Assembly: GCA_001784175.1 (NCBI GenBank)
Contig: MFPR01000026.1
Span: 62,001-126,000 of the forward strand
Source of the DNA: Candidatus Lindowbacteria bacterium RIFCSPLOWO2_12_FULL_62_27
GTDB lineage: Bacteria > Lindowbacteria > 2-12-FULL-62-27
DNA length: 64,000 nt
Direction of reading: 5' to 3'
Each line of letters opens with the position of its first letter. Positions within the stretch are counted from its first letter, which is position 1. The notes beneath the pieces were generated by a model that ran no database searches, was not told where the DNA came from, and worked only from the letters and a program-made list of their open reading frames with translations. Shown in pieces: positions 14,137-46,882 of this stretch. A program made the translations under genes and the position numbers.

Positions 14137-15339
14137 TTACTTCATGTGCCAGGCGAGAAGGTTCGGGAGAAATCCGGCGAAGATGCGGGCGGCCAGAAGG
14201 TCCTTGGAATCGAAGGCGCCGACCTTGTTGTGCAGGACCAGTGCGCCGAGCGGGCGCTCGGCCGAAACCGCGATCAGCAGCGCCTGCGAGGCGCCGGACG
14301 GGTAGCCCTCCAGAAGCTCCGTCGCGCCGACGTTCAGGGCCTCCTTGAGCCGGGGATGCGTGGACGGATCGAGCGATTCCTGCGTTTCGTTGACGTAGGT
14401 CCGGCCGTCGTACCGGCCCGACAACTGCCATGGCGCGCCGTTGGAAGCGTCATGGACATAGAAGGACACCATGCGGCACCGGAAGAGCCGGACGCTCGAC
14501 AGGACCGAGCGGCGGACGAAGGCCGCGAGGTCGGCGGCGCCGGAAATTTCCCGGACCGCCTCCATGATGTTGAAGAAACTGCCGCCATCGACGTCCTTGC
14601 TGTCGCGCTCGCGCTTCTGCTCGGCCAGCTTCTTCGAGAACTCGATTTCGGCTTTCTTCATCTCGTGCTGAACAAATTCGGCCAGCGCGCCCGACGTTTT
14701 CGATTCCCAGCGCTTGGTCACCCCTGCCGCGATGAGCGCGAGCAAGAGAACGCAGGCGATGGCGACGGCGCCGGGCGTGCGGAGCTGCCGGAGCGTCCGG
14801 GCGATGACTTCGGATTTGAAGAATCCCATCTCGACCTCTCCGAGTTTGACGGTGCCCTTCTTGGCGGTGAGCGGTGTGTAGGCGCGGTAGATTTTCTTGC
14901 CGGACGGCAGTTTCATGGGCACAAGGTCGGATCCCGAAGTGGCCATGAGGAGTTTGGCCTTGTTCTGAATGGTCGCCAGATGCGCAAGGTCCGAGTTGGC
15001 GGGCCCGGTCGCGCCGAGGGCCGTTGAGGTGGCCCACACGAGAACGCGGCCCTGGGGATCGAAGACGGCGAGGTGCGACACAAGGGGCGACCGGATGAGG
15101 TTCCCGGCGGCGCGCTTGAGGGCGACGTCATCGCGGTTTTCGAAATTCTCGGTGTTGGACAGGACAAAGAGCCTCATCTGCGCGGCGGCGGCCGCAAGCT
15201 CCGAGTCCAGCGCCTCCATGAAAAAAGCGCCCAGGAGCAGCCCGAACAACATCGCGCTGACCCCGATCGTCCCATAGAGCAGCCGGCTGGACAGCGCGAT
15301 CCGTTTCTTGAGTTTCTCCTCGAGGTCCTCCGCTCCCAT
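14137..15339 (-). CDS. Membrane sensor-like protein: two TM helices, an extracytoplasmic domain, a coiled coil and a GAF-like C-terminus
   Basis: TM segments flanking a Cache-like region (HLAVFDPQGRVLV). GAF-like end RPLGALVLHNKVGAFDSKDLLAARIFA. Start uncertain; the ORF extends to 15459. Confidence 0.65.
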   Translation of the reverse strand: MGAEDLEEKLKKRIALSSRLLYGTIGVSAMLFGLLLGAFFMEALDSELAAAAAQMRLFVLSNTENFENRDDVALKRAAGNLIRSPLVSHLAVFDPQGRVLVWATSTALGATGPANSDLAHLATIQNKAKLLMATSGSDLVPMKLPSGKKIYRAYTPLTAKKGTVKLGEVEMGFFKSEVIARTLRQLRTPGAVAIACVLLLALIAAGVTKRWESKTSGALAEFVQHEMKKAEIEFSKKLAEQKRERDSKDVDGGSFFNIMEAVREISGAADLAAFVRRSVLSSVRLFRCRMVSFYVHDASNGAPWQLSGRYDGRTYVNETQESLDPSTHPRLKEALNVGATELLEGYPSGASQALLIAVSAERPLGALVLHNKVGAFDSKDLLAARIFAGFLPNLLAWHMK

Positions 15340-15600
15340 GGGGGTCACCCTACCAGCGCCGGGAGGCCGGACACAAGGGCGGCGTCTGTCGAAGCGCGTC
15401 CCCCGGGCCAGGAAATTTTCTTGACACCGATCCTTCCTCGACGAACTCTGGTCCGGCAAACTTGTATAAAAACCCGGGTGCTTGACCTATTCGTCGGCTG
15501 ATACTACCGTTCGGTGGTTTTTACAGGACGGGTGTGTGAGCGCTTCGCATTTGCATGCCGAATATTGCGAAATCCTCTGGTTCGGACGGGAATCATCGGG

Positions 15601-27350: not shown

Positions 27351-27363
27351 TGAGGGGATTGAA

Positions 27364-30884: not shown

Positions 30885-30909
30885 TCTCGTCCTTTTCATC
30901 AAAGCTCGA

Positions 30910-31020
30910 CACGGAGATCGCAGAGGTAGAGCACGGAGATCACGGAGAAGTCCGTATGGTTTGTGTTCCCCAAAATCGGAAACCTTCCATCTCCTCCGTG
31001 CTCTCCGTGTGCTCCGTGGT
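30910..31020. repeat. REP-like CACGGAG/CTCCGTG inverted-repeat element
   Basis: CACGGAG at 30910, 30932 and 30941; inverted CTCCGTG at 30994, 31003 and 31012. Confidence 0.7.
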
Positions 31021-33227: not shown

Positions 33228-36200
33228 TCAGCGCGAAACGTAAATCTTGTCTTTGACCTGCTCGAAAATTTCGTCGGTGATGTCGGGGACCTGTTTGAGG
33301 TCGGAGATGGTTTTGAATTTGCCGTAGGTGTAGCGGTAGGCGTCGATCATTTTGGCGCGGTACTCGTCGATGCCCGGCAGTTTCTGGAGGTCCTCCAGCG
33401 ACGCCGTGTTGATGTCCATCTTGCCCTGCTGTTCCGGCGACGCTTGCTGAGGCGGAGTGGACGATTTTATTTCCGGCGGCGGAAGAGACGCGTCGTAGGG
33501 TTCCTCCTTGGGCGTGGGCGCAGGCTCGGGCTCAGGCTCAGCCGCCGCAGGCGGCGGTGGCGGTGGCGGCGGCGGTGGCGCCGTGGGCTGCTTTTGTTGC
33601 GGCGCAGGCGCCGCCAGAGGCGCCGGTTTTGGCTGGGGGGCCGGCGCCACCGGTTTGGGCTGCGGCGCGGGCGCCGCGGTCATGGGCGCGGTGGTCGCGG
33701 GCGCGGGCGCCGGCGCAGTCGCCGGCCTCTGCTCCGGCTGCGGCGGCGGCGCCAGTGATCTCGGCCGCGTCGGCGCGACCTTCGGCACGACCACCGGCGG
33801 CGCGGGGGTTGGCGCCGGAGCGGGCGCCGGCGCAGGCGCTGTCCTCGCCGGCTCACTCGGAACGTAGGGCAGGGGCGGCAGTTTCTGTTCCTGCGGCGGC
33901 GCGAGGGTCAGATCGCCAAGTCCCGTGCCGCGGATGATGATGACGGGTTTGATGAATCGCTGGTATAATCCCTTGTTCATGCCGAGTCCGAGCATGAGCG
34001 CCTCAAACTCCTCCTCGCTGCGGAAAATCCCACGGGCCTTGCGCTCCTCCACGATCTTTTGCGCCATCCCGAGGTTAATACCCTTGATCCGCACCAGCTC
34101 CTGGAGACTGACCACGTTCGGGTCAACTTTGTATTCGATCCGGTAGACGACGTCGTCGAAAATCACCCGCGTGAGGCCCGGCACCGTCATCAGGTGCTCC
34201 AGCGCCTGGTAGGGGCCGAACTGCTCGCGTCGCGCCACGATCCGCTGGGCCAGCCGGAAAGGCTGGTCGGGATCGACATCGCTGCGGAGTCCGGGGAGTT
34301 CCGAGATTTCGGCGATGGAGGAGGTGTTGATGTTGACGGGGAATGGCGTGATCTGCTGGAGGGACTTGGCAACCTCCTTCGTGACCTGCGTAGCCTCCGG
34401 CAGGTTGGTGATGACGTGGGGTGAAATGAAGATCATCAGCTCAGTTTTGAGTTTCTTCTCAGTCTTCGACTTGAACAGGTTGCCCACGACGGGTATTTCC
34501 TTCAGAAATGGAACGCCCGAGTTCGAGAGTGTTTTCTTGTCGCGGATGACGCCGCCGAGCACTAGGGTCTGCGCGTCGCCCAGGAGGATCTTCGAGCTGG
34601 CCTCGCGCCGGTCGATCGTCAAAACGGTGCCGGCGACCGGGGTGGCCGAGAATTCGTTGATGGTCACCACGATGTCCAGCTCAACGGTCCGCTCGCTGGA
34701 AATGGTCGGCGTGATTTCAAGGCTCAGGGTCGCGTCCACCGGTTCGGTCGCGGACGACACGACACCGGTGACGGACGTTTGATCGAGCCGGACCCGCACG
34801 GTCTGCCCCAGCAGGATCTTGGCCTTCTGGTTGTTCAAGGTCGTCACCTTGGGCGTGGCCAGAATCTCGGTGCGGTTCGTCGACGTGAGGAACTCAAACA
34901 GGACCCGCGCCTGCGCCGTGTTCAGGATGGCGCGGTAGGTCCCGGCGCCGAGCAGGCTCGGCGAAAATTCCATGCCGAGCTTGCCTTCCTTGCCCGTCAG
35001 TTGACTCGGGTCGAAAACGGATTTCTGCGCGCCGCCGGAGGCGCGGAGGGCGTCCGGGTTGGTGATGAAATTGATACCGCGCTGATCGTTGTCATCCAGC
35101 GTGTATTCGAGGATCGTGGCGTCGATGAGGACCTGGGGCGCGGGCCGGTCGTGGGCGTCGATGATCTTGTGTATTTCGTTCATCTGCGCCGGCGGCGCCA
35201 GCACAGTCAGGATGTTGAGCCGGTCGTCGGCGGTGATGCTGGCGAAAAGCTGGGACTGGGTCGAGGCGGGTTTCGACGTGGTGACGAGGGGATCGAAGTT
35301 TCCCTCCTGAGCGCTGGTGGTGATCTCTCCAGCGGCCCCGGCGGCGCCTTTCCCCGTGCTGCTCTTGACCGTCACCTCGGTGACCTTGCTCTTGCCCTTC
35401 AGAATATTGGCCATTTCGGAGGGTTTGATGTAGCGGAGGACGAAGGACCGGCTGATGAAGTCCGGGGGCGCCGGGGTGGCGATGTCGATGTTCGCGACCA
35501 TGCCGTTCACCATCGGGATGTTGGATTCGAGCGTCGCCACAATGACCAGATTCGGGCCGGCCAGAGATCGGACGACGCCCACGATCCCGCTGCTGATGCC
35601 GCCGGCGCTGACCATCGACCCGGTGAACAGACTGCTCAACAAGACCGCCGCGTCCGCGGCCGTCACATTCTTCATCTGATACACCTTGGTCGTGAATCCA
35701 GGGGTTGTGCCGACGCCGGGCTGATCCATCTCCTGAATGAGCCGTTCGATCTGCTCGATCGATTCCTTCGGCGCTTGAACGATCACGGTGTTGGTGGACT
35801 GGATGAGGTTGATGATGCCGTAAATTTTGCCCGGCGTCAGGCCCGCCTGGTCTGAAGACGTGACAAACCCGGCGAGCGCATTGGCGATGGCGACGGCGCT
35901 CGTGTTCTGGATTTTGTACAGCTTGAATTCCAGATCCCGGTAGGACTTCATCTTCCCGACGAAATCCTTGAAGGCCTCAATGTTTGGCGGCATGTCGCGG
36001 ATGATGAGATACAGCCGGTCCTGGGCCAGCGTGATGAAAATCATGCCGGACGGGGAAAGCATGGTCTTGACGAGTTCGGCGATCTCCGTGCGGAATACGA
36101 GCTGTTCGGACCCGGGCGTGCTGAAGGTCCAGACGGCGTCGCCTGACTGGTTGGTCTTGGCGGTCACGGTCTGCGGCGGGATCACAAGGTAGCTCCGGAG

Positions 36201-39200
36201 CGGAGTGATGTCGAGGATCTGGATTTCCAGTCCCGGCGTCATCTGGATGTCGATCTGCGGGAGCACGGCGGCGACGGCGGACTGGACATCCTCGCGGGCC
36301 AGAACCAGCAGGCTGTTGGCGCGGTCCAGCGGCAGGATCGCCGGCTGGTCGAGGGCGTCGGTGAGGCTGCGGAAGAAACTGATGGCTTGGGACGTCGTGG
36401 CGGTGGATCGCGTTCCCTCGAAGATTTGCGTCGTGAAGAACCGCTGGGCGCCGGTGCGCGCGTCGCGGAGCCCGAGGAACTGCCGGAGGACCTCGGCGGC
36501 GTCCGCGACCCGCATGTTTTTGACCTCGTAGGCCCGGATGAACGTCTTGGTGTTGTCGGCCTGTTCCAGAAGCCGCAGGACGTTTTCGACGATGGCCGGC
36601 GCATCGTAGACGATCACCAGCTTGTTGTCCTTGTCGACGAGCCACCACCCGCGCGAGATTTCCTTGGTGGCGGCGGCCGTCACGGATTCCTCCCACACCC
36701 ATTCGCCCGTGCCGGTGTTGGTGGCCGTGACTCTCTTCCGTTCCTCCTGCGCCGCGGCGGGCGGGGAAGGGATGATGTTTCCGAGGAAAGAGGTGAGATT
36801 TGTCGGATCGAGGAATTTGAGCCGGTAGATGGCGAGTTTCTTGGCGCCCTTGTCGAGCGCGTTGACGGCATTTTCGAGTTCCAGGACGACGTCGCGCCGG
36901 TCGTTTACGAGGTACGAGTTGAATTCGGGATAATGCCGGTACGTGCCGCCCACCGACAGATGTTTATGGATGAGGGCGTCGGCCGTTTCGGTGTCGAGAT
37001 AGAAAAACCGGAACTCGCGGGTCACGGTGTCGGAGTAGGCGGTCTTGACGTCAAGGGATTCGATGACCTGCCCCATCAGGAACAGGACCTCGCGGGTGGA
37101 TAGGATCGTCACCGTGTTTTTAGCGGGGTTCACGGTCATGATGTTGAGGAGCAGCGACTGCTTGACGAACTGCTCGTCCGTGATGCCCTCGCCGGACTTG
37201 CCGCGGACGCGGCGCGTGAGGCGGAGCTGGTCGTAGCTGATGACGCCGAGCTTGGTGATGGACAGGTCGCTGTTGATGACGGTGAACTCGAACTTGCCCG
37301 ACTGCTTGAGGATGTCGGACAGCCTCGAGGCCATCTCGGACGCCGACGCGTTTTTGAGCTGGTACGTGCGGACCTCCAGGTACGACTCCTGGGTCTTGGC
37401 GGTGGAGACATCGAGGACGGCAAGGATGTTGGCGACCTTCTTGACGTTGTCGGCCGTCTGGATGACCAGGAGCCGGTTGGAGAGGGGGTCGGCCACGATC
37501 TGGCCGCCGTCCTTTTCGACGAACTCGGTCAGGAGCTTCACGATGTTTTCGGCGGTCGTGTACTTGAGCTCGAACACGTGCGTGACGAACTTCCCGCCGG
37601 TCTGGGGCGTGTCAGAGACGACCGGGAGCGGCCGGCCGACCGCGCGGGTCTTGGCGATGATGCGGACGGTGTTGCCCTCGGTGACGCGCGTGAGCCCGGA
37701 GCTTTCGAGGACCATGTCGAGGGCTTCGAGGACGGTGACGTCGACGACGTGGATGGTGAGGGGCGGGATCTCGACCTTTTTCTCGGCGCCCTTGTGATCG
37801 AGGAAGGGCACGACGAATTTTTTCTTGGCGTCGTCATATTCGAGGTCGAAGATGACGTTCATGTTGCCGAGTTGCGCGAGGGTGCGGATGACGTCGACGA
37901 CGACGGCGTCCTTGAAATCAAGCGACACGATCCGCTGGCCGGACTTGGCCGTAAAGAGCACGCGCTCGCTCGTGCCCGCGCCGCCGATCAGACTCGCCTC
38001 CACCAGCTGCTCGCCCGCCTCCACGCCGAGGACCCAGACCTCGCAGCGGGCCAGGCCGGCGGTGTCGGAGACGGCCTCGTTGTCGCGGGGGTCGTTGAAT
38101 TTGATGGTGTCGAGCCGGCCGTTGCCTTTGAGGATCGTGTACTGGACTTTCGCGCCGATCACCGGATTGCCGTATTCGTCGGTGACGCGCGTCACGAGGT
38201 GATCCTTCAGTTCGTCGCCCGCAATGGCCTCCTGACCGTCCCCGGAAACTTTTTCGAGGTGGACTGGCGGCCCCGCGGTGACGATCACGGGGATGACCAT
38301 TTCGACGAGGTTGAATTTGGCGGGATCGCCGGCCGAAACCTTGATCGAAATCGGCTCGATCTTTCTGCCCACGGCCAGCGGCGCCTCGGCCACGCCGGAT
38401 TTGTTGGTGTTCACTTTGATTTTCTGAACGCCGTCGGCTGCGGACCCGGAGAGGCTGCCTTCGCCGGACATGAGCTCAAACGTGACCGGCAGGTCGATCA
38501 CCGGCTGGGCGCTGGCCGCGTCGACCACCTTGACGCCCACCGGCGCGGCCTTGCGGGACACGGCGACGCTCTGGCCGGCGCCGATGAGATTGGTGAACGC
38601 GTAGAGCGGGCCGATTTCTACTGTGGGCGTGGGCGCTGCGGCGGGTTCCGTGACGGCCGGCGCTGCCGGCGGCGCGCCCGCCAGCGCCTCGGGCGGCGAC
38701 GCGCCGCCGAACCGCACCCAGATCCCGCCACGGCCGGCCTCCACCGCCGGCTGATCTGAGCCGCGGAGCAGGTCGAGTACGACGCGCGCGGTCATGATCG
38801 GAAACGTGCTGAACTGGCTGTGTCGGATGCGCAGGATCGGGCCGCGTTTGATGTCGTATGATTTCCTTGGCAAACGATCGACCGCGCCGGGCAGGTCGAT
38901 CGACATCATGGGCGGAGAGGCGACAGGGTTGGGCAGAAAATCAACGCCATCGGTCGTTCGGATGAAAACGACCGGCGCGCCCGGTTCGCCGTATACTTCG
39001 AGTCCGTAGACGCTCGGCTCGTCGCCGGCCGGCGGTTTCTCCGAGCCGAACCGCAGGACGGGCGTGCCGGATGTTTCTTTCGGCGCTGCGGGCGCGGCAG
39101 GCGCGGCTGCGGTTGTGGGCGTGGCAGGCGCAGCTTCCGTCGGCGGCGCAACGGCCACGGGTTTCTCCTCTTTCGGCGGTTCCGGCGCTTTCGCTGTTTC

Positions 39201-39833
39201 GGCCGGCGCCACAACCGGCGCGGGTGTGGGCGCTGCGGCCGGAGATTCTCCGGCGGTTACGGCCTTGACTTCTTCCTTCGGCGCCGCTTGCGCGGGCGCT
39301 GGGGCCGGTTTTGGCTCCTCCTTCTTGGCCGCCGCCTTTACGGGTTTTTTCGCGGGTGCAGGTTTGGGTTTCTCCTTGGCCGCAGGTTTCGGCTTCGGTT
39401 TTTCCTCGGGCACCGCGATGATGATGTCCTCCATGATGACTTCCACCGGCGCCGGCGCGGGCTTGGCAACCGGCGTGACCACGGGCTCTGCGGCTGGGGT
39501 GGCTGCGGGTGCAGGAGCGGGTGCAGCAGCGGGAGCGGCCACGGGCGCCGCGGTCGGCGCCGACTCGACGAGCTTGCCCTGGCGCCGCAGTTCGGTCGTG
39601 ACTTCCTCCATGAGCTTCTTCGCCCGCTCGTGCTTCGGATTCTGCTTCAGGGTCTGCTCAAGATACAGGTAGGATTCCTCATATTTTTCCGCGACGTAGG
39701 CCTTGAGCGCCGAACTGAACAACTCGTCGGAACTTGCGGCCAGCGCCGGCATCGCGGCCGACGCGGGGATCGCTGTCGCCGATCCGAGAAGCAGCGCGGC
39801 GATGAACGCCCAACCCCACGCCCCGCGCATCAT
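33228..39833 (-). CDS. pilQ: Giant PilQ/GspD-family secretin (2201 aa) with TPR-like, AMIN, Ig-like and about nine secretin-N domains plus three C-terminal ComEA-like HhH modules
   Basis: N0 domain VSLDFKDAVVVDVIRTLA. Secretin core PQVLIDATILE...ILATPKVTTLNNQKAKI...LEITPTI...GVPFLKEIPVVGNLFKS...TELMIFISPHVI. HhH modules PVNINTSS, KVDPNVVS and KMDINTAS. Last gene of a pilM-N-O-P-type operon. Confidence 0.88.
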   Translation of the reverse strand: MMRGAWGWAFIAALLLGSATAIPASAAMPALAASSDELFSSALKAYVAEKYEESYLYLEQTLKQNPKHERAKKLMEEVTTELRRQGKLVESAPTAAPVAAPAAAPAPAPAATPAAEPVVTPVAKPAPAPVEVIMEDIIIAVPEEKPKPKPAAKEKPKPAPAKKPVKAAAKKEEPKPAPAPAQAAPKEEVKAVTAGESPAAAPTPAPVVAPAETAKAPEPPKEEKPVAVAPPTEAAPATPTTAAAPAAPAAPKETSGTPVLRFGSEKPPAGDEPSVYGLEVYGEPGAPVVFIRTTDGVDFLPNPVASPPMMSIDLPGAVDRLPRKSYDIKRGPILRIRHSQFSTFPIMTARVVLDLLRGSDQPAVEAGRGGIWVRFGGASPPEALAGAPPAAPAVTEPAAAPTPTVEIGPLYAFTNLIGAGQSVAVSRKAAPVGVKVVDAASAQPVIDLPVTFELMSGEGSLSGSAADGVQKIKVNTNKSGVAEAPLAVGRKIEPISIKVSAGDPAKFNLVEMVIPVIVTAGPPVHLEKVSGDGQEAIAGDELKDHLVTRVTDEYGNPVIGAKVQYTILKGNGRLDTIKFNDPRDNEAVSDTAGLARCEVWVLGVEAGEQLVEASLIGGAGTSERVLFTAKSGQRIVSLDFKDAVVVDVIRTLAQLGNMNVIFDLEYDDAKKKFVVPFLDHKGAEKKVEIPPLTIHVVDVTVLEALDMVLESSGLTRVTEGNTVRIIAKTRAVGRPLPVVSDTPQTGGKFVTHVFELKYTTAENIVKLLTEFVEKDGGQIVADPLSNRLLVIQTADNVKKVANILAVLDVSTAKTQESYLEVRTYQLKNASASEMASRLSDILKQSGKFEFTVINSDLSITKLGVISYDQLRLTRRVRGKSGEGITDEQFVKQSLLLNIMTVNPAKNTVTILSTREVLFLMGQVIESLDVKTAYSDTVTREFRFFYLDTETADALIHKHLSVGGTYRHYPEFNSYLVNDRRDVVLELENAVNALDKGAKKLAIYRLKFLDPTNLTSFLGNIIPSPPAAAQEERKRVTATNTGTGEWVWEESVTAAATKEISRGWWLVDKDNKLVIVYDAPAIVENVLRLLEQADNTKTFIRAYEVKNMRVADAAEVLRQFLGLRDARTGAQRFFTTQIFEGTRSTATTSQAISFFRSLTDALDQPAILPLDRANSLLVLAREDVQSAVAAVLPQIDIQMTPGLEIQILDITPLRSYLVIPPQTVTAKTNQSGDAVWTFSTPGSEQLVFRTEIAELVKTMLSPSGMIFITLAQDRLYLIIRDMPPNIEAFKDFVGKMKSYRDLEFKLYKIQNTSAVAIANALAGFVTSSDQAGLTPGKIYGIINLIQSTNTVIVQAPKESIEQIERLIQEMDQPGVGTTPGFTTKVYQMKNVTAADAAVLLSSLFTGSMVSAGGISSGIVGVVRSLAGPNLVIVATLESNIPMVNGMVANIDIATPAPPDFISRSFVLRYIKPSEMANILKGKSKVTEVTVKSSTGKGAAGAAGEITTSAQEGNFDPLVTTSKPASTQSQLFASITADDRLNILTVLAPPAQMNEIHKIIDAHDRPAPQVLIDATILEYTLDDNDQRGINFITNPDALRASGGAQKSVFDPSQLTGKEGKLGMEFSPSLLGAGTYRAILNTAQARVLFEFLTSTNRTEILATPKVTTLNNQKAKILLGQTVRVRLDQTSVTGVVSSATEPVDATLSLEITPTISSERTVELDIVVTINEFSATPVAGTVLTIDRREASSKILLGDAQTLVLGGVIRDKKTLSNSGVPFLKEIPVVGNLFKSKTEKKLKTELMIFISPHVITNLPEATQVTKEVAKSLQQITPFPVNINTSSIAEISELPGLRSDVDPDQPFRLAQRIVARREQFGPYQALEHLMTVPGLTRVIFDDVVYRIEYKVDPNVVSLQELVRIKGINLGMAQKIVEERKARGIFRSEEEFEALMLGLGMNKGLYQRFIKPVIIIRGTGLGDLTLAPPQEQKLPPLPYVPSEPARTAPAPAPAPAPTPAPPVVVPKVAPTRPRSLAPPPQPEQRPATAPAPAPATTAPMTAAPAPQPKPVAPAPQPKPAPLAAPAPQQKQPTAPPPPPPPPPPAAAEPEPEPAPTPKEEPYDASLPPPEIKSSTPPQQASPEQQGKMDINTASLEDLQKLPGIDEYRAKMIDAYRYTYGKFKTISDLKQVPDITDEIFEQVKDKIYVSR

Positions 39834-42800
39834 TCGCCGAGAACCCTCAACACTTTTTCTAGCCGCGCCCGGAGCGACGTCGCCTCCGGATGGCCCGGAT
39901 GCTCGGCGATGAACTGCTCAATCGCCGTTTTCGCCGCGCGGTACTCGCCCTTGTCGACCAGTGCCTGAACGTCCGCCATGCTCGGCGCCGCGGCCGCCGC
40001 AGGTCTTTGCCTCTCGACCGGCGTCGGCTGCGTGAGGGTCGGCGTCGGCGCTCCGGCGCCGGGCCGGAGCGTGATGTGAAGGAGATTCGCGCGGGAGAGG
40101 ATGGAATAAGCGTACGCGGCGTCGATCTTGAGCACCAGCCGCGTCGCTTCGCCGCCGTCCCCCGCAAGTTTCGCGGCCCGGAGGCCGGGCAGGTCGAGCG
40201 CGTCGTAGTCGTAGACGCGGAGCAGGCCCGTCTGCGGCAGCGAAATCACGAGCGCGCTCAAGCCGGACCCGAATTGCGTCGGCTGCGACGCGCGATAGTC
40301 GATGGGCCCCGACGCCACGACGTACACGTCGGTGCGGTCGGGCGCCGCCTTGAAAAACAGGCCCTCCGCGCGCGGACGCCAGTCGCTCACGGGCGGCTCC
40401 CGAAGCGCCGGCGCCGGCGCGCCTTTCACCTGGATGGTGATGCGGCCAGCCTCGGGATACACGAGATATCCTTCCGACACGCCCCGCGTGAACATCTGCG
40501 GCGTAAAAGAAGACGGCGTCAGGGCGGTCGGCCGGGCGCCGGCCCCGCCGATGTCGATCTGGACCGGCTGGCCGATGCTGCGCGCGTCCTCGACGGGATT
40601 GCCGTAGGCGTCCAGCGCGGTGACGCGAACCCGGAACGGCTCGCCCGCGATCACCTGGTCGAGCACGTCGACCCGGAAGGTCGCCGCGCTGCCGGGCAGG
40701 ACCTCCACGGTGTTGGACCGGCCGCTTCCGCGGCGGTCCTCGGTCGAGGCTGTGATTTCAGTCTTGCCGGACGATGCGAGCGTGACGGAGACGATGGCGA
40801 TTCCCTCGGAGAAATTTCCGGCGTGGATCACGTCGGGCGATATTCTATTCTGCCCGGTGGACGCCAGCAGAATTTTCCCGGGCTCGTCGAATTCACGGAT
40901 CAGATTGTAGTACATGTCCTGCGCCTCGATCCGCACCGGAAACGGCTCGCCCGCTCGGACCTTGGGCGCGACCGACACGAGGAACTGCGACAGCGGGCCG
41001 GCGTTCACTTTCAGGTGCCCCGACTGGCCGGCGGCCGTGCCGAACCGCTCGCTCGCGGTGAGCAGGATGCGCTCGGCGACGAAGGACCGAAGTTCCACCT
41101 GGGCGACGCCGTCTTTGAACGCGGCCGGTGCCACCTGCGCCGGCTGGACCTCGCCGATTCCGGAGGACTGGATGAGAATGCCGCTGCCGGACCGGTGATA
41201 GTCGGTGACGGTGTTGCCGTAGGCGTCCCTGGCCGTGACGGCGATCCGGTAGGGCGCGCCGGCTCTTGCGGCGGCCGGCGTGGTCACATCAAAATGATGC
41301 AGCGCGGCCGGCATGACTTCGATCGGTCCTGACAGCGCGCGCTTGCCGCGGCCGCTCGGAAGTTCCGCGATCACGCGGACCGTGCCCGTGCGGTAATAGG
41401 GGAGGGTGGCGGAGGATTTGCCGTAAGCAAATGATGCGGCCGGAATTTCCGTCGCGGCCGGCGCCTGCGGGCCGTCGACCTGCACGAGCACGCTCCCCTG
41501 GCCGAACTCGGCGACGGGGTTTCGGTAGGCGTCGATCACCGTCAGCGCGACGGGAATGCCGGAACCGGCCGTCGCCACGGACGCGGTTGTGATCTCAACG
41601 TCGGCCGGCATGCCCGGCCGGACCCGCACTTGGATCGGCTCGGACCGGAGAAGCCCCCCGGCGTCCTGGGCGGTGATCCGGATGTCTTCGGCCACGTTGT
41701 AGGACACTTTGCGTTCGATGATGGCTTTCACAAATGAGTGCGGCGCGATTTCGATCGGCGTTGTCCGTACGGTCCCCTGGACCGTCAGGAGAATCGTGCC
41801 TTCCGGAGACTTGGACGGGTTGCCCTTGGAATCGACGGCGCGGATTTTGACCGCAAAAGGCGCTCCGGCGTCGGCCTCTCCGGGCGCCGAAAGTTCCAGC
41901 CGGCGTGGCCGCCCGGGCTGGATGTCGACCGTGCCCGAAACGCCGGACCGCCGGGTGCCGGGTTCGGATGCGGCGAGAAGGATCTGTTCGGTTTTCGGAT
42001 AGGTGAGCCGCACAAAGGCGACGCCCTTCACGAACAACTTGGCGGGCAATTCCGACGGCGACGGCGAGGCGGTGCCGTCGGCGGAGAGGTAGACGACGGT
42101 GCCGATGGCGTCGTAATCCATGACGACATTGCCGAATTCATCGAGCGCGGTGATCGCGACATCGAAAGGCTCATCGACGGGCACGGCGGGAGGCGCCGTG
42201 ATCTGAAAGCGGTGCGGTGCGCCGGAGGCGACGGACAGTTTCGACGGGGCCTTGCCGACCACGCCGGTTTTCGGGTCGCGCGCGCGGACTTCGACCTCGC
42301 CGGTGCCGGTGTAGGTGACGGCGGCATCGGCCACGCCGTCGCCGAACTGCGCCGGCATCACGCGCGTCGGCGTCAGCCGGCCGAACCCGTCGCTCGACAG
42401 GATCACGCCCTCGGTCTGCTTGTTGAATTCCTTGATGATGTTTCCGAACGCGTCCAGCGCCATGATCGTCAGCCGGAAGGGCACGCCGGCCCGCGCGGTC
42501 GCGGGCTGCGTCACGCGGATTTCGCTGAGCTTGCCGGGCGCCACCACGAACGGGGCGCTCCGGGCCTCGATCCGGCCGACTGCGCCGCTCGTGGACCGCG
42601 CGACAAGCTCGATTCGCTCGGCGACCTTGTAGATCATCTGAAGTTCCGCGACGCCGCGCACAAAGGATCTCGGCAGAACCGACTTCGGCCAGATCTCACC
42701 CCGGCCGGACACCGAAATATCCATTTCGATCGACCGGCGGTCCATGTCGGTCACCACGTTGCCGAACCGGTCCCGCACTTCCAGTTTCACCCCGAAGGGT

Positions 42801-42946
42801 TCGCCGCATACGGGATTGGCGGGCACGGTCCACACCACGGCCGCAGGCTCGCCGGCCTGTACCTCAAGATCGGCCGCCTTCGCCGGCAAGGAGAAGCACA
42901 GCAGGATTGCCGCCAGCGCGCCCATGTGTCCGCGTAGGAGGATCAT
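39830..42946 (-). CDS. Exported protein with eight tandem ~100-aa Ig-like repeats, an AMIN-like domain and a C-terminal TPR-like helix pair
   Basis: Repeat consensus P....AG.PF.V.I.A.D..GN seen 8 times. Signal peptide present. ATGA overlaps with both neighbours. Confidence 0.75.
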   Translation of the reverse strand: MILLRGHMGALAAILLCFSLPAKAADLEVQAGEPAAVVWTVPANPVCGEPFGVKLEVRDRFGNVVTDMDRRSIEMDISVSGRGEIWPKSVLPRSFVRGVAELQMIYKVAERIELVARSTSGAVGRIEARSAPFVVAPGKLSEIRVTQPATARAGVPFRLTIMALDAFGNIIKEFNKQTEGVILSSDGFGRLTPTRVMPAQFGDGVADAAVTYTGTGEVEVRARDPKTGVVGKAPSKLSVASGAPHRFQITAPPAVPVDEPFDVAITALDEFGNVVMDYDAIGTVVYLSADGTASPSPSELPAKLFVKGVAFVRLTYPKTEQILLAASEPGTRRSGVSGTVDIQPGRPRRLELSAPGEADAGAPFAVKIRAVDSKGNPSKSPEGTILLTVQGTVRTTPIEIAPHSFVKAIIERKVSYNVAEDIRITAQDAGGLLRSEPIQVRVRPGMPADVEITTASVATAGSGIPVALTVIDAYRNPVAEFGQGSVLVQVDGPQAPAATEIPAASFAYGKSSATLPYYRTGTVRVIAELPSGRGKRALSGPIEVMPAALHHFDVTTPAAARAGAPYRIAVTARDAYGNTVTDYHRSGSGILIQSSGIGEVQPAQVAPAAFKDGVAQVELRSFVAERILLTASERFGTAAGQSGHLKVNAGPLSQFLVSVAPKVRAGEPFPVRIEAQDMYYNLIREFDEPGKILLASTGQNRISPDVIHAGNFSEGIAIVSVTLASSGKTEITASTEDRRGSGRSNTVEVLPGSAATFRVDVLDQVIAGEPFRVRVTALDAYGNPVEDARSIGQPVQIDIGGAGARPTALTPSSFTPQMFTRGVSEGYLVYPEAGRITIQVKGAPAPALREPPVSDWRPRAEGLFFKAAPDRTDVYVVASGPIDYRASQPTQFGSGLSALVISLPQTGLLRVYDYDALDLPGLRAAKLAGDGGEATRLVLKIDAAYAYSILSRANLLHITLRPGAGAPTPTLTQPTPVERQRPAAAAAPSMADVQALVDKGEYRAAKTAIEQFIAEHPGHPEATSLRARLEKVLRVLGE

Positions 42947-43839
42947 TCGCCCCCCAAGTCCAGGCCGCCGCCACCGCCCGCGCCGCCACCGCCGCCACCC
43001 GCGCCCCCGCCGTCCGATTTCGTCTCTTCCTCCTCCGCTTCCTCGTCCGTCACTTCCTCGTCCGCCGCGGCCCCCTCGTCGGCTGCCGCTTTTTTCTTCT
43101 TGGATTTTTTCGTCTCCTCGGCGTCGCCGCCCTCTTCACCCTTGGCCTTGCCCTCGCCTCCCCCGCCCTCCTCGCCCTCCTCGAGCTTCACCGTCGCTTT
43201 CTTGCCGTACCGCGCGTCGTACTCCCAGTTGGACCGCGTCTTGTAGGCGTTGGAGGCCAGCGCTTCCCTGAGATCGTCCAGACCGTACTCCTGCGGGAGA
43301 TACACGGGCGCGGGCAGAAGGCCCTCCTCTTGGACCGTGATGCGGCTGCGGCCGATCTCCACGACTTTCTTTTGCGTCCCCCGGATGTTCTTCCCCTCCA
43401 GCACCACGATCGCGACCCCGTTGACTTCAATGAGCGCGCTCCGCCGCTGCGCCGCATAGGAGTAGACGGTGCCGATGAGATCGATGCCGGTCACGTCGGT
43501 CACCTTGTCCTCCTTGTCCAGCCCCGTCTGCTCGAACACGCCGAAGGGCAGGAAGGGATTGTGCTGCCGGAGAAGCCGGACATCGTAGGACATCTGGGCG
43601 GCCGCGGCGGGGGGAGGCGGCGGTTTCGGCTTGTACCGCCGCATCTGCTCCTCGACTCGGGCCCGCACGGTCCGGGCGTCCTCGAGACCGTACAGCACAA
43701 GGAAATTGGGCTCGAACGCGAAGAGATCGACCAGGCCCTGTGTGACGTAGACGTTTCCCAGGAGCGTCACCCAGAACAGGATCTTCAGGACCGGCACTTT
43801 CGCGTTGATCTTGAAAAATACGTCCTTCAATTTGCCCAT
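42943..43839 (-). CDS. PilP/GspC-like protein with an N-terminal TM segment and an acidic low-complexity tail
   Basis: Position after pilO. HNPF motif followed by IDLIGTV...SALIEVNG...VLEGKNI...VVEIGRSRITVQE (HR/PilP-type beta domain). No lipobox. Confidence 0.65.
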   Translation of the reverse strand: MGKLKDVFFKINAKVPVLKILFWVTLLGNVYVTQGLVDLFAFEPNFLVLYGLEDARTVRARVEEQMRRYKPKPPPPPAAAAQMSYDVRLLRQHNPFLPFGVFEQTGLDKEDKVTDVTGIDLIGTVYSYAAQRRSALIEVNGVAIVVLEGKNIRGTQKKVVEIGRSRITVQEEGLLPAPVYLPQEYGLDDLREALASNAYKTRSNWEYDARYGKKATVKLEEGEEGGGGEGKAKGEEGGDAEETKKSKKKKAAADEGAAADEEVTDEEAEEEETKSDGGGAGGGGGGAGGGGGLDLGGE

Positions 43840-43840
43840 G

Positions 43841-44398
43841 TCAGACCTCCGTCAACGTCGACGAATAGACGTTGGCGATAATACTAATGGTAAAACTTTG
43901 AAGTTTCGTGCCGGGAGCCAGCGGGTCGGGGCTGATGTTGATCGAAGAAATGTCGATCAGCCGCTCGTAGTTTTCAATGCGCCACAGAAATTCAACGAGC
44001 TGGAACCAGTAACAGGTGAACTGTATCCTGAGAATTTCCGCCTTCCAACCCTCGCCGCGATCCCTGCTTTCCTCCGGCTGTATGCCCTTGATCCGGACGC
44101 CGGCCCGCGCCGCCAGTTCCTGCATTTTGGCGATCAGCTCGAACGACCCGGCCTCCGTCGGCAACACCTTTTTCAGCTCCGCCAGGCGGTACTTCAACAG
44201 GTCGACCTCGCCGGCGAGCTCACTCATATTTTCGGCTTTTTTGTGCGCTGTCCTGAGTTCCTTCACCAGAGTGCTGATCTGCTCCTCGCGCTTCTTGTGC
44301 TCGTCGTACATCGGCACCACGAACATCCAGATCAGGCCGCCGACCGCGGCGACCCCCAGAAACCCGAGGGCCTTCTTGTCGCTCTCCTTGAGTTCCAT
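43841..44398 (-). CDS. pilO: Type IV pilus assembly protein PilO
   Basis: N-terminal TM and coiled coil, LKKVLPTE, QELAARAGVRI, and FLWRIENYERLIDISSINI. Confidence 0.85.
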   Translation of the reverse strand: MELKESDKKALGFLGVAAVGGLIWMFVVPMYDEHKKREEQISTLVKELRTAHKKAENMSELAGEVDLLKYRLAELKKVLPTEAGSFELIAKMQELAARAGVRIKGIQPEESRDRGEGWKAEILRIQFTCYWFQLVEFLWRIENYERLIDISSINISPDPLAPGTKLQSFTISIIANVYSSTLTEV

Positions 44399-44401: not shown

Positions 44402-46882
44402 TTATGCGCCTCCCGCGCCCGGCACGGGCGCGGATTTGGCGGCGGCTGCGTGGTTGACTTGGAGGGTGAAATCGACCTCGAAGGTCTTGCCGGTCGGACC
44501 CTCGACCTCCCGCGGGCTGGGGCGGTTGACCAGCGTGAAGAGGTCCTTGGTCAGCTCCGGCGTCTGAAACCGTTTGCCGATGCCCGGGATTTCCGCAAGG
44601 CTGTTCGTCACGATCCTCAGGTCAATCCGCTCTTTCGTCGGCATCGTCAACGACCGGACCGCCGCGTTTTCCGGAATGGTCCGGTCCAGCGCCGAGAGGA
44701 CGGCCATCCACATGGCGCGGGACCCGAGGAGGTTCGCGATGGATTTCTCCAGATCGTTGACGGTCTTCTGGTCCTTTTCGAGCTGCCGGGTCCGCGTGAC
44801 CACGGGATCGAGTTCCTGGATGTCGGACTGGATCTTGGCGTGAAGCGTCTTGGTGTTGTGGACGGTCATGTAGGCGGACAGGCCGCCGAGCACGAGCAGG
44901 AGGCCGGCGGCGATCCCGAACCATTTCACGTCTTTCCCCATGGACCGCATGCGCCGGATGGCCAGGATGTTTTCGGGCAGCATGTCGATGTCGAGGGGCG
45001 TTCCGTCCAGGATTCGCATGCCCATGCCAAGGGCCGCCGCAAATGCCTGTGGATTGTCCTGCGACTGGCCTGACGGCACGGTCACTTTGCCTACCGGGTC
45101 AAAGACCGTCACCGGGACGTTCAGTTGCGTCGACAAATATTCGGCCAGGCCTTTCAGCGCGGCGCCGCCGCCCGAGAGATGGACCCGCTTGATTTCTCCG
45201 CCGCCGAGCTGGCCGACAAAATAATCGAAGGACCGCCGAAGCTCAGTGGCCAGACGGTCCGCAATCGGCTTGACGGCGGCTGTGAGCTTGTCCTTGTCGA
45301 CTTTGATGTCTTCCTTTTCGCTCTCGAATAAACTGAATACCTCGCCATCCTCAGCCTTCGCCGCGCCGAGCGATTTCCCTCCCGGTCCGCCCGGCGGCGC
45401 CGGCGCCGGCGGTTTGGGGCCGGGCAATCCCAGTCCGGGTGGGGGCGGCGCTTTCAATCCGGGCGGGGGTGGAGCCCCGGGCGGAGCCGGGGCCGCTGTC
45501 GGCGGTTTGGGCAACGAAAGCGCCGGGGGCTTGAGTGTCGGCGCCGCCGGAGGTTTCGGCGCAGCAGGCGCAACAGGCGCGGTCTGCGTGGGTGCCGGGG
45601 GTTTCATCATCGGTGGCTGCGGCAGCGCGACTTCAGTTACTTTCTTCGGTATCTCTTGAGCCGGCGCGGCCGCCGGCTTTTCAGCGGTGGGTGGCGCGGG
45701 AGGTTTCAATCCACCCGCGGCCGTCGCCCCAGGCAGGGGTGCCGCAAGTCCCGGCGCTTTGGGCGGCGTCAAGCCCCCGGCCGATGGCGGTGTGAGCCCG
45801 CCCGCGGCCGGCGCCGGCGCCGCAAGTCCCGGCGCTTTCGGCGGAATCAGCCCGCCGGCGGCCGGCGGGGCCATGGATGGCCCCGTCCCTGCCGTCCGCG
45901 ACGCCAAGGATGGCGTCGCCCCAGGCAGGGGGGGCGTCAGCCCCGGCGCTTTGGGCGGCGTGAGTCCGCCCGCGGCGGCGGGCCCCGCCAATCCAGGCGC
46001 CTTGGGCGCCGCCAGTCCGGGAGACTTGGCCGTTGGCATCGACGCTCCGGGCGCTTTGGGCGAGGCGAGTCCGCCGGGCGTCCGCCCCTCGCCTTCGAGA
46101 GAGGCGAGATCCGCCTGGATGGCTTTGACCTCGGCATGTTTGATCTTGAGTACCTCGGCCTTGTCCTCCGGGATGCCCAGGCGCTTCGAGATGATCTCGG
46201 TGAAACTTCGGCCGGCGATGGGCACGCTTCTGGTGAAAAACACTCTCTGATTCTTGATGAACGCGATGTCGGTTGTCCCCGCGCCGATGTCGACGAAGAC
46301 CTCCGAGATGTCTTCCTCTTTTTCGTCCTTCAGCTCCCCATGATAATACAGGGAAAAAAGGGCCAGGGTCGTGACATCGACGATCAGGACCTCCAGTCCC
46401 GCGTCTTCGATGATCGTTACCATGCTGTCCAGCTTGTCCCGCTTGATCGCAACGAGAAGCACCTCGAAGCCGTTGTCCTTCTTTCGCGCCTCGCACCAGT
46501 CCAGCGACACCTCGTCCAGCGGAAACGGTATGTGCCCCTCCGCCTCGTGCCGGACCACCCCTTCCAGCCGGTCCTTGGGGATGCCTTGGAAGGTCAGATA
46601 GCGGATGATGACGGACTGGGCCGGCAGGGCGAAAATCGCGTTTTGTTTTCGGAATTTGTGTTTGTCCACGAGGGCCTTCAGAAGCTCCGCGGCCTTGGCC
46701 TCAAAGTCCTTCCCGGCAAGACCCGCCGGCATGGGCAGACTGTCCCACACGTCGACCTTGTACTTCCCGCCGCCCCCGGTCAGACGGCAGACCTTCACCG
46801 CTGACGCGCCGATGTCCACGGCGAGACACGACTTCTTGCCGAACTTGGGCAGACCGGTCAATGCCGGCAGCTTGAATGCCAT
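44402..46882 (-). CDS. pilM: PilM-PilN fusion protein with a Pro/Ala/Gly-rich insertion inside PilM
   Basis: PilM motifs LAVDIGASAVK, EAEGHIPFPLDEV, FVDIGAGTTDI, ELRRSFDYF and LSGGGA. These are followed in frame by a PilN-type IDMLP motif (INLLP), a TM helix, a coiled coil and LDRTIPENAAVRSL. Confidence 0.88.
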   Translation of the reverse strand: MAFKLPALTGLPKFGKKSCLAVDIGASAVKVCRLTGGGGKYKVDVWDSLPMPAGLAGKDFEAKAAELLKALVDKHKFRKQNAIFALPAQSVIIRYLTFQGIPKDRLEGVVRHEAEGHIPFPLDEVSLDWCEARKKDNGFEVLLVAIKRDKLDSMVTIIEDAGLEVLIVDVTTLALFSLYYHGELKDEKEEDISEVFVDIGAGTTDIAFIKNQRVFFTRSVPIAGRSFTEIISKRLGIPEDKAEVLKIKHAEVKAIQADLASLEGEGRTPGGLASPKAPGASMPTAKSPGLAAPKAPGLAGPAAAGGLTPPKAPGLTPPLPGATPSLASRTAGTGPSMAPPAAGGLIPPKAPGLAAPAPAAGGLTPPSAGGLTPPKAPGLAAPLPGATAAGGLKPPAPPTAEKPAAAPAQEIPKKVTEVALPQPPMMKPPAPTQTAPVAPAAPKPPAAPTLKPPALSLPKPPTAAPAPPGAPPPPGLKAPPPPGLGLPGPKPPAPAPPGGPGGKSLGAAKAEDGEVFSLFESEKEDIKVDKDKLTAAVKPIADRLATELRRSFDYFVGQLGGGEIKRVHLSGGGAALKGLAEYLSTQLNVPVTVFDPVGKVTVPSGQSQDNPQAFAAALGMGMRILDGTPLDIDMLPENILAIRRMRSMGKDVKWFGIAAGLLLVLGGLSAYMTVHNTKTLHAKIQSDIQELDPVVTRTRQLEKDQKTVNDLEKSIANLLGSRAMWMAVLSALDRTIPENAAVRSLTMPTKERIDLRIVTNSLAEIPGIGKRFQTPELTKDLFTLVNRPSPREVEGPTGKTFEVDFTLQVNHAAAAKSAPVPGAGGA

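Follow-up and report, generated by a model that had tools for sequence, protein, structure and literature searches.

A single gene in the DNA analysed here (a 64,000-nucleotide stretch, called the window) encodes a secretin that continues, in one reading frame, into three ComEA-like helix-hairpin-helix (HhH) modules. We give a probability of about 0.55 to the reading that this protein is a PilQ-type secretin of a DNA-uptake machine resembling a type IVa pilus (T4aP), with a periplasmic tail of three ComEA-related modules that acts in uptake. In the accepted model of Gram-negative transformation, the channel PilQ and the DNA receptor or ratchet ComEA are separate proteins; to our knowledge, the passage of DNA from PilQ to ComEA is still unsettled.

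Architecture and integrity of the secretin gene

The fusion had been proposed in a sequence-only reading of this DNA, and the domain models bear it out, as PF00263, Secretin_N and HHH_3 all matched in the one frame. The end of the core at ...ISPHVI, placed at ~34410, proved exact (residue 1808 ends at base 34410), and the Pro/Ala linker, put at ~170 aa, measured 166 aa. The features of the gene, from the N-terminus of the protein to its C-terminus, are as follows.

33228..39833, minus strand: whole secretin-HhH gene, a single unbroken open reading frame (ORF) of 2201 aa (ORF list and translation)
39756..39833, minus strand: probable signal peptide, residues 1-26, read from the translation as a hydrophobic stretch with an Ala-rich end (...ASAA)
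39060..39563, minus strand: N-terminal Pro/Ala/Lys-rich linker, residues 91-258, seen in the translation; 23% identical among orthologues
38700..39059, minus strand: AMIN-like domain, residues 259-378, assigned by homology; 74% identical among orthologues
37968..38240, minus strand: Ig-like (Big_1-type) domain, residues 532-622, a weak match (Pfam 18.8 bits, below the cut-off of 34.9)
37650..37757, minus strand: STN/N0-type domain, Pfam stretch 693-728 (20.4 bits, below the cut-off of 28.4)
35142..37577, minus strand: stack of six to seven Secretin_N ring-forming domains, residues 753-1564 (Pfam and our own HMM)
34410..34889, minus strand: secretin core PF00263, residues 1649-1808 (147.6 bits, cut-off 27.5)
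34341..34403, minus strand: helix after the core, at the position of the S-domain helix, residues 1811-1831 (helix H14-27 of the AF2 model)
34131..34340, minus strand: HhH module M1, residues 1832-1901 (HHH_3; own HMM 1832-1903)
33930..34130, minus strand: HhH module M2, residues 1902-1968 (HHH_3; own HMM 1902-1966)
33432..33929, minus strand: Pro/Ala-rich linker of 166 aa, residues 1969-2134; 38% identical among orthologues
33231..33431, minus strand: HhH module M3, residues 2135-2201 (HHH_3; own HMM 2138-2200)

No Pfam match to AMIN was obtained in the 2201-aa protein at E <= 0.1. AMIN (PF11741) is present in an orthologue (P0008) and in four of the six distant relatives scanned (P0111, P0112, P0114 and P0115), in the relatives at a roughly equivalent position of the chain (residues about 186-316). 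The wider region around N0 (residues 626-740) is 86% identical across orthologues. Secretin_N scored 187.7 bits over six stretches with Pfam, and iteration of our own HMM placed copies 1-4 at 753-810, 823-929, 1002-1094 (weak) and 1101-1196, and copies 5-7 at 1305-1372, 1384-1452 and 1464-1564. The AMIN-like, Ig, N0 and six to seven ring domains, together with the unusual length, suggest that the secretin spans a wide periplasm. The helix after the core is 92% identical across orthologues. In the tail, HHH_3 (PF12836) scored 130.4 bits in three stretches (cut-off 27) and the NCBIfam model of the ComEA HhH region, TIGR00426, 86.7 bits (cut-off 53.1); the full-length ComEA model, TIGR01259, stayed below its cut-off (88.9 against 152.35).

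An assembly artefact or chimera is ruled out by three observations. The architecture is the same in six full-length homologues drawn from NCBI, ENA and Logan assemblies, whose C-terminal parts are 56-76% identical; the junction between secretin and HhH is present in all four species genomes of the phylum (75-100% identity); and independent contigs run across it. Logan contigs from four runs in four studies cover 33587-35600 without any difference, and so cross the interval 34000-34500, where the sequence-only reading had called for a read check. Run X5 is the only independent one, because the other three may be the source of the assembly, and a single X5 contig (33760-34938) spans the junction. 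All covering contigs break at a Pro-codon repeat within the 166-aa linker (33506-33586), so that the link from M1/M2 to M3 rests on the assembly and on the six orthologues, which carry M3 in frame.

Conservation, recurrence and hairpins of the HhH modules

Among seven orthologues, identity was 86% for M1, 81% for M2 and 87% for M3; the secretin core reached 58% and the N-domain region 25-57%. Judged by sequence identity, the HhH modules are under stronger constraint than the channel itself.

The secretin-HhH architecture is recurrent and not unique to this genome. HhH modules follow the secretin core in 22 of the best 150 representative clusters, in about three clades, and at five of the 80 genome loci examined; all 11 fusion representatives tested with both Pfam models passed. 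On the secretin-core tree the fusions required three state changes, against a mean of 23.8 after shuffling. The sequence-only reading had known of no described secretin of this kind. In the literature searched we likewise found no publication describing a secretin-HhH fusion, and nothing on secretins in that on Candidatus Lindowbacteria, but the recurrence in the data shows that the architecture is not singular, and some of the fusion proteins already carry automatic annotation names. The L010-L013 secretins have two-module tails. Short fusion forms of 655-903 aa (P0120, P0122, P0135 and P0224), some of them partial records, came from an exhaustive search of representatives. A word-indexed search with residues 1740-2000 against proteins below 1210 aa gave 93 matches, none with both PF00263 and PF12836; this negative reflects the limit of the word index, because the exhaustive search found such forms. 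One candidate, a Verrucomicrobiota MAG (L030), was discarded: its tblastn match seemed to extend to residue 2199, yet no HhH follows the secretin.

M1 has the hairpins GLR, with an eight-residue insert, and GLT; M2 has GIN and GMN; and M3 has GID and DIT, with Asp at the position of the second Gly. The second Gly of the GhG motif occurs in none of the six hairpins of M1-M3. For hairpin 1 it was found in 0 of 21 modules of the protein's own family and in 1 of 52 in the other fusion clades, and for hairpin 2 in 0 of 21 and 0 of 52 (two unaligned), that is, in 1 of the 146 fused hairpins compared. The free HhH modules near ComEC (in L010, L011 and L013), in contrast, keep it in all aligned hairpins (13/13 and 9/9; 22/22 in total). 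On the evidence of these alignments, the fused modules are a separate HhH subclass that lacks the second glycine in both hairpins. In Vibrio cholerae ComEA, the changes G60V and G60E are non-functional and abolish uptake, and K62/K63 are required for DNA binding (PMC3879209). Our own mapping through the ComEA alignment assigns Arg to the K63-equivalent position of M1 and M3, and Met to that of M2. Net charge (-2, +2 and -2 for M1, M2 and M3; +9 for the classical ComEA module of the genome) was tried as a marker of DNA-binding against non-binding modules and rejected, as it did not separate the classes.

The predicted (HhH)2 fold is ComEA-like. The AF2 model of M1-M2 had a pLDDT of 73.8. In VIA searches the nearest fold to M2 was ComEA (8dss_B; Z 9.6, rmsd 1.7 A over 65 residues), with 2duy at Z 8.0, and the nearest to M1 was the HhH domain of TEFM (Z 6.2); M3 matched the ComEA structure 8dfk by sequence (E 1.5e-8). 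Foldseek gave no match to the two-domain M1-M2 model at E <= 0.001. A complex prediction with two copies of M3 reached 0.01 (mark 0.42), which is evidence neither way on self-association.

Gene neighbourhood

The secretin gene is the last of a pilM-pilO-pilP-like operon on the same strand, the preceding genes being the following.

44402..46882, minus strand: PilM with a long C-terminal extension, 826 aa (PilM_2, 170.9 bits)
43841..44398, minus strand: PilO (46.2 bits, cut-off 22)
42943..43839, minus strand: PilP/GspC-like protein, 298 aa, a weak match (T2SSC 22.1 bits, below the cut-off of 27)
39830..42946, minus strand: Ig-repeat protein, 1038 aa (Pfam matches all below cut-off)

The PilM_2 match is the sole strong one in the genome. 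The Ig-repeat gene, which sits between the pilP-like gene and the secretin, has counterparts of similar size and place in L009, L010 and L013. The PilB/PilT-like ATPase cluster with PilC is on another contig, without a secretin, and the two other secretins of the genome adjoin T2SSE ATPases of their own.

The window also holds a ComEC cluster, at 6.7-15.5 kb, which is 18 kb from the secretin and not adjacent to it.

14137..15459, minus strand: membrane protein of no known family, 440 aa (orthologue in L009, 54% identity)
12414..14129, minus strand: ArsP_1-type permease (orthologue in L009, 60% identity)
8889..11840, minus strand: ComEC-family channel, 983 aa, with DUF4131 and Competence and without a Lactamase_B domain
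8154..8888, minus strand: membrane-anchored protein with two canonical HHH_3 modules (hairpins GVG/GFG and SIG/GIR)
7114..8157, minus strand: membrane-anchored metallo-beta-lactamase (MBL) protein, 34% identical to the gene at the same position in L010; probably the split-off nuclease domain of ComEC
6678..7088, minus strand: probable lipoprotein with one canonical HHH_3 module (hairpins GIG/GIG; lipobox read by eye)

In L009, which belongs to the same phylum, the two genes directly 3' of the secretin are orthologues of the first two genes of this list, which in the window lead into ComEC, the protein with two HHH_3 modules, the MBL protein and the HHH_3 lipoprotein. In L010 (overall identity about 26%), the genes run pilM, pilO, pilP, Ig protein and secretin (M1, M2), followed by a 397-aa protein, an ndk-like gene, ComEC, a protein with three HHH_3 modules, an MBL-like protein and a lipoprotein with two; L011 and L013 repeat this order, judged by ORF size and our own HhH HMM. 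That the secretin is followed in relatives by ComEC, canonical ComEA-like proteins and MBL supports a DNA-uptake role of the system. The genome has 32 matches to HHH_3, spread over about 19 ORFs, and four ComEC-like genes, a heavy investment of this groundwater lineage in envelope HhH proteins.

A module with 67% identity to M3 sits in a TPR protein encoded elsewhere in the window (54156-55598), and HhH modules of the GhD type occur in other TPR proteins of this genome. The TPR protein of the window was rejected as a conserved partner or pilotin: only its module, not its TPR part, was matched in three related genomes (81-91% complete), and no full-length orthologue was found in them. No pilotin family was detected.

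Role and placement of the tail, and comparison with known systems

In the reading that we prefer, the secretin would be the PilQ-type outer-membrane channel of a type IVa-pilus-like DNA-uptake machine. M1-M2 stand directly behind the conserved post-core helix, and M3, on its tether of ~166 Pro/Ala-rich residues, would be able to sweep deep into the periplasm. Secretin channels usually have 12-15 subunits, which would bring some 36-45 HhH modules to each machine. These modules may surround the barrel externally, on its periplasmic side, and may act in uptake together with ComEC and the canonical ComEA-like proteins, tethered to the outer or inner membrane, of the same ancestral gene string. They would most likely be low-affinity holders or guides of DNA, or a hand-off station in a relay. 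Since the fused hairpins lack the second Gly, DNA binding by the tail is plausible only. Of the DNA capture device first envisaged for this protein, the connection of the system to uptake has held, through the pil operon and the ComEC/ComEA-like synteny, whereas binding of DNA by the modules is called into question by the 0/6 hairpins with the second Gly.

It is possible, though on the unlikely side, that the fused modules are a diverged HhH subclass that does not bind DNA and serves protein contacts or assembly. This could take the form of a collar on the barrel in place of the S domain, or of a dock at the channel for the canonical ComEA-like lipoprotein, for the ComEA-like membrane proteins or for other HhH proteins. 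The systematic loss of the hairpin glycine in fused modules and its retention in free ones would fit such a role, as would the position of the fused modules as the lowest-scoring HHH_3 matches in G004-G007, yet strongly conserved, the sharing of an M3-like module with a TPR protein in a genome whose other TPR proteins have GhD-type modules, and the presence among the fold matches (Z 5-6) of GspK and PsbU, whose HhH-like folds do not bind DNA. (HhH)2 domains are also known to mediate ERCC1-XPF heterodimerisation. The cluster also retains free HhH proteins of the canonical type, and the fused modules therefore need not be DNA receptors. However, Ser, Thr, Asn and Asp at the Gly position are ordinary helix N-caps, by which reasoning phosphate binding may persist, Arg is retained at the K63-equivalent position in M1 and M3, and the TPR protein lacks a full-length orthologue in the related genomes.

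The tail is probably outside the barrel, on the periplasmic side, because the homologous C-terminal S domain of T2SS and T3SS secretins meets pilotins in the periplasm, as stated in PMC4453517. The ring of HhH modules 'at the pore' that had been suggested earlier is, on this homology, probably wrong. A tail exposed at the surface, where M1-M2 in 12-15 copies would make an integral DNA-catching crown round the pore mouth and M3 a tethered fishing line, is distinctly unlikely. Lieberman et al. (2015; PMC4453517) report that C-terminal tags of the T4P secretins BfpB and Pseudomonas aeruginosa PilQ were accessible on intact cells, and those of T2S and T3S secretins inaccessible, and DNA uptake in Thermus requires a crown of unknown composition on the extracellular face of the PilQ complex (PMC5745081); the T4P tags and the crown would both suit a surface position. 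Against this, an S-domain-like periplasmic position is favoured by the C-terminal helix and by an alignment that runs to the last position of the GspD model (residues 1338-1818 on positions 123-600 of 600), and a surface tail would require the passage of about 390 residues, three folded domains among them, through the outer membrane. If true, a surface tail would be the covalent counterpart of the transformation-specific Thermus PilQ crown, and the glycine-less HhH subclass of secretin tails a new surface DNA receptor.

That the protein is a GspD-type secretin for protein export, with an HhH tail unrelated to uptake (for example, an anchor to extracellular or periplasmic polyanions), is highly improbable: although it passes the NCBIfam GspD equivalog TIGR02517 (403.3 bits, cut-off 351.35) and falls below the cut-off of the PilQ model TIGR02515 (223 against 284.35), the GspD score comes from four stretches and is inflated by the repeated N domains of which the protein is full, PilO and the adjacent PilM_2 upstream pass their cut-offs while T2SSM (26.2 against 27.8) and T2SSC do not, relatives have AMIN domains, the two other secretins of the genome adjoin their own T2SSE ATPases, and the ComEC synteny is conserved.

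ComEA-type domains have become joined to the channel in several uncultured lineages, which also retain canonical ComEA-like proteins and ComEC beside it in the gene string. The modules are short (65-70 residues), and by studying them in isolation, with the glycine restored or as grafted tails, one could test in a simple system whether the proximity of HhH and secretin matters in uptake, and what the glycine-less subclass binds: DNA, protein or some other partner. For candidate phyla, the architecture also supplies a rule by which competence machinery can be annotated.

The protein resembles PilQ in its secretin core, N0 and Secretin_N rings, in the AMIN-type N terminus of its relatives and in its place after pilM/N/O/P-type genes, and its six to seven stacked ring domains are reminiscent of the six rings that PMC8578077 and PMC5745081 describe for Thermus PilQ. 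It differs in being three- to four-fold longer (2201 aa, against 757 in Thermus (PMC5745081) and about 570 in V. cholerae (PMC7545093)) and in having Ig-type domains and a C-terminal tail of ~390 residues with three HhH modules; AMIN, N0, N3 and secretin domains are the only ones named for 197 proteobacterial T4aP secretins in the excerpt of a survey (PMC7545093). The likeness of the tail to ComEA (8dfk, 8dss and 2duy) lies in the HHH_3/TIGR00426 family, the (HhH)2 fold and the genomic link to ComEC, but the tail is covalently part of the secretin, lacks the second Gly in both hairpins of every module and has no SLBB or oligomerisation domain. As with the S domain of T2SS and T3SS secretins, a C-terminal extension starting with a conserved helix follows the last conserved strand (ELMIFISPHVI), and an outer-membrane-type lipoprotein is encoded in the same gene string; here, however, the extension consists of HhH domains and not of a helix-turn-helix S domain. 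A further parallel is the Thermus PilQ crown (PMC5745081), which is also an add-on of a competence secretin, with one unit per subunit and tied to DNA uptake; that crown is a separate component outside the membrane, whereas the HhH tail is part of the chain and probably periplasmic.

Integrity of the secretin–HhH reading frame

The secretin gene is a single unbroken minus-strand ORF, 33228..39833, encoding 2201 aa by ORF listing and translation of the window. Pfam gave Secretin_N in six stretches (187.7 bits), the secretin core PF00263 at residues 1649–1808 (147.6 bits) and HHH_3 (PF12836) in three stretches (130.4 bits), with weak matches to STN and Big_1. The NCBIfam model TIGR00426 (ComEA HhH region) scored 86.7 bits (cut-off 53.1). 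The fusion of a secretin to three HhH modules, proposed in the sequence-only reading, was thus borne out within one ORF, and its landmarks were exact, with the ISPHVI end of the core at base 34410.

Tail of the secretin (minus strand; translation and module HMM)
Residues 1832–1901: M1
Residues 1902–1968: M2
Between M2 and M3: Pro/Ala linker, 166 aa
Residues 2135–2201: M3

An assembly artefact as the source of the fusion was rejected. The same architecture occurs in six full-length homologues of 1936–2126 aa (NCBI, ENA and Logan assemblies), 56–76% identical to the secretin across its C-terminal 562 residues, and the secretin/HhH junction is encoded at 75–100% identity in all four species genomes (one family, four genera) that make up the phylum in the reference set. 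Contigs from four Logan runs, each of a different study, matched 33587–35600 without differences. Since the assembly may derive from three of them, only X5 was counted as independent; mapping over the junction was continuous in this run, where a single contig (33760–34938) crosses it. All contigs of the four runs stop at a Pro-codon repeat in the linker (33506–33586), so the connection to M3 in the assembly rests on orthologues rather than bridging contigs, and of the whole gene the linker length is least certain.

Comparison of seven orthologues shows conservation of the secretin to be highest in the tail, with identities of 92% for helix 1811–1831, 86% for M1, 81% for M2 and 87% for M3; the secretin core has 58%, the N-domain region 25–57% and the linkers 23–38%. 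An AF2 model of residues 1798–1977 had a mean pLDDT of 73.8. Foldseek with the two-domain M1–M2 model returned no match at E ≤ 0.001. In VIA, the fold closest to modelled M2 was G. stearothermophilus ComEA (8dss_B; Z 9.6, rmsd 1.7 Å, 65 residues), with the Tex HhH domain next (Z 8.5) and then 2duy, a ComEA-related protein of Thermus (Z 8.0). For M1 the closest fold was that of the HhH domain of TEFM (Z 6.2); further down the list came GspK and PsbU (Z 5–6). By sequence, M3 matched the ComEA structures 8dfk (E 1.5e-8) and 8dss (E 1.2e-6). Net charges (M1 −2, M2 +2, M3 −2) are uninformative.

Rarity and spread of the fusion

A HMMER search with residues 1640–2000, exhaustive over 1.84 billion cluster representatives (E ≤ 0.001), gave 34,050 matches, and the module HMM placed HhH modules behind the secretin core in 22 of the best 150. 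Both PF00263 and PF12836 were passed by all 11 fusions scanned with Pfam. The fusion proteins have 655–3242 aa and one to four modules each; one representative carries the label of a Candidatus Hydrogenedentota MAG. Among the best 80 genome loci from 185,579 species representatives, fusions were found in five (L009–L013); the other 75, all of named phyla, had none.

A FastTree tree of the secretin core was built from 117 rows, 26 fusions and 91 non-fusion secretins, leaving out four rows with a partial core and, because of possible truncation, 35 non-fusion rows with <13 residues after the core. Three changes of the fusion label suffice on this tree, where shuffling the labels gave a mean of 23.8 and none of 500 shuffles went that low; the sample is skewed towards fusions because the query itself had HhH modules, and a single origin is possible.

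No description of such a fusion was found in the literature on such secretins, including parts of the TFF-superfamily survey PMC6668835, which make no mention of one, and of the V. cholerae PilQ paper PMC7545093, where 197 proteobacterial T4aP secretins are AMIN-N0-N3-secretin. The original view that no secretin of this architecture had been described therefore holds for the literature searched, yet the architecture is not unique to this secretin: it recurs in databases that already annotate it automatically, one fusion being named 'GspD/PulD (secretin)/DNA uptake protein ComE-like' in IMG.

A pilus operon and a ComEC cluster

Genes upstream of the secretin (minus strand)
PilM, 826 aa (PilM_2, 170.9 bits)
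PilO (46.2 bits)
PilP/GspC-like protein (weak match)
39830–42946: protein with Ig repeats, 1038 aa

In every relative examined (L009, L010 and L013), the gene of an Ig-repeat protein of 1000–1140 aa separates the pilP-like gene from that of the secretin. The window's genome has four secretins: this one, two that each adjoin a T2SSE ATPase of their own, and one of CpaC-like type. Because its sole strong PilM_2 match is the gene in the secretin operon, and because contig C1 holds a PilB/PilT-type ATPase cluster with PilC and without a secretin, we read the secretin as the probable PilQ of a T4aP-like system. NCBIfam disagrees, the GspD model being passed (403.3 > 351.35, four stretches) and the PilQ model failed (223 < 284.35). 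About 3.7 kb from pilM, on the opposite strand (50555–51676, plus), lies a 373-aa T2SSE-family ATPase, possibly PilT-like, that matches the core of the model (156.8 bits).

ComEC cluster of the window (minus strand)
8889–11840: ComEC (DUF4131 + Competence, no Lactamase_B)
8154–8888: 2xHHH_3 protein
7114–8157: membrane-anchored metallo-beta-lactamase (MBL) protein, two genes downstream of ComEC
6678–7088: HHH_3 lipoprotein

Gene string of locus L010 (one strand throughout; secretin ~26% identical overall to the window's)
1: response regulator
2: pilM
3: pilO
4: pilP-like gene
5: Ig protein
6: secretin with M1 and M2
7: 397-aa membrane protein
8: small ndk-like gene, named from its N terminus only
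9: ComEC (DUF4131 + Competence)
10: three HHH_3 modules
11: 341 aa, 34% identical to the window's MBL protein
12: lipoprotein with two HHH_3 modules

L011 and L013 share this order by ORF sizes and the HhH HMM, the Pfam scan being that of L010. The split into a ComEC without Lactamase_B and a separate MBL gene is common to the window and L010. In L009, from the same phylum, the secretin is immediately followed by two genes orthologous (54% and 60%) to window genes 14137–15459 and 12414–14129, and in the window this pair runs straight into the ComEC cluster. Ancestrally, then, a single string ran from pilM to the ComEA-like lipoprotein. The secretin and ComEC halves are now parted in the window by ~17.8 kb of plus-strand genes (15514–33223), most of them without a known function. 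Among the large genes of this block, possibly a surface-protein island, are those for a protein of 2159 aa with a B_lectin-type end, for one of 821 aa whose C-terminal third is Gly-rich, and for one of 781 aa that matched no family. ComEC-like genes number four in the whole genome.

HHH_3 is much expanded in the window's genome, with 32 matches in ~19 ORFs (contigs C33, C20, C6, C30, C19, C37 and others). At least seven HhH proteins start with a Ser/Thr-kinase-like part (HRD...DFG by eye), followed by a membrane segment and then, at the C terminus, by one or more modules that are probably extracytoplasmic; several of these proteins are clustered on C33, and they could be envelope DNA sensors. 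The TPR protein at 54156–55598 (plus) of the window has at its C terminus an HhH module that shares 67% identity with M3 and matches it exactly over a run of 19 residues; no full-length orthologue of its TPR part was found in three related genomes. GhD-type modules occur in two further TPR proteins (C30 and C19). A secreted protein (C33:103875-105389) resembles, by its duplicated HxK motifs as judged by eye, a nuclease of phospholipase-D type. Its two halves are separated by an inserted canonical HhH module, and it would fit envelope DNA degradation. The genomes behind L010–L013 are small MAGs (1.4–2.9 Mb) with 12–18 HHH_3 matches each, and many of their proteins have 2–4 tandem modules.

Hairpin subclass and possible role of the tail

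The second Gly of G-h-G is absent from all hairpins of M1 (GLR, then an 8-residue insert, and GLT), M2 (GIN and GMN) and M3 (GID and DIT). Among modules located by the HMM built from M1–M3 themselves, it was present at hairpin 1 in 0 of 21 own-family modules and in one of the 52 modules of 21 other fusion proteins, and at hairpin 2 in none of either set (two of the 52 not aligned), being replaced by Ser, Thr, Asp or Asn. Module HMM and Pfam HHH_3 counts were equal in every checked protein where Pfam counts at least three. The free HhH proteins by ComEC in L010, L011 and L013 have the second Gly in 13/13 modules at hairpin 1 and 9/9 aligned at hairpin 2 (four not aligned), and the three free modules of the window's ComEC cluster in 3/3 and 2/3. 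The fused modules are a special hairpin subclass across all fusion clades, and in the four MAGs they are the genome's weakest HHH_3 matches.

The gene string is a conserved one for DNA uptake, and its PilQ-type secretin bears strongly constrained modules of the ComEA fold. The DNA-uptake interpretation, originally a ring of modules at the pore serving DNA capture or ratcheting, survives in part: the link of the system to DNA uptake is well supported by the string with ComEC and ComEA-like proteins. That the tail directly holds or guides DNA is given a probability of 0.55. Secretin channels usually have 12–15 subunits. The tail comes after the last conserved strand, like the helix-turn-helix S domain of T2SS/T3SS secretins, and T2SS/T3SS C termini contact pilotins in the periplasm (PMC4453517, section 9); it would thus lie outside the barrel on the periplasmic side, not at the pore itself. 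M1–M2 would sit immediately beneath the outer membrane, with M3 on its Pro/Ala tether reaching far into the periplasm. Together with the OM-type lipoprotein ComEA, the IM-anchored multi-HhH protein, ComEC and the split-off MBL nuclease, this suggests that tethered HhH domains may form a relay from outer to inner membrane.

The main rival, that the glycine-less subclass has turned into a protein-contact or assembly module, we consider unlikely. (HhH)2 domains mediate ERCC1-XPF heterodimerisation; Ser, Thr, Asn and Asp are ordinary helix N-caps and need not stop phosphate binding. ComEA of V. cholerae tolerates G60A but loses uptake with G60V or G60E, and DNA binding in vitro needs K62/K63 (PMC3879209). 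At the equivalent of position 63, mapped via the ComEA alignment, M1 and M3 have Arg, M2 has Met. Exposure of the tail at the cell surface is improbable. In its favour, extracellular C termini are reported for BfpB and P. aeruginosa PilQ (PMC4453517), as is an extracellular crown of Thermus PilQ specific to DNA uptake (PMC5745081).

Direct holding or guiding of DNA by a periplasmic tail is the reading we prefer. The standard pilMNOPQ operon is without an Ig-repeat protein, whereas the operon of this secretin has one.
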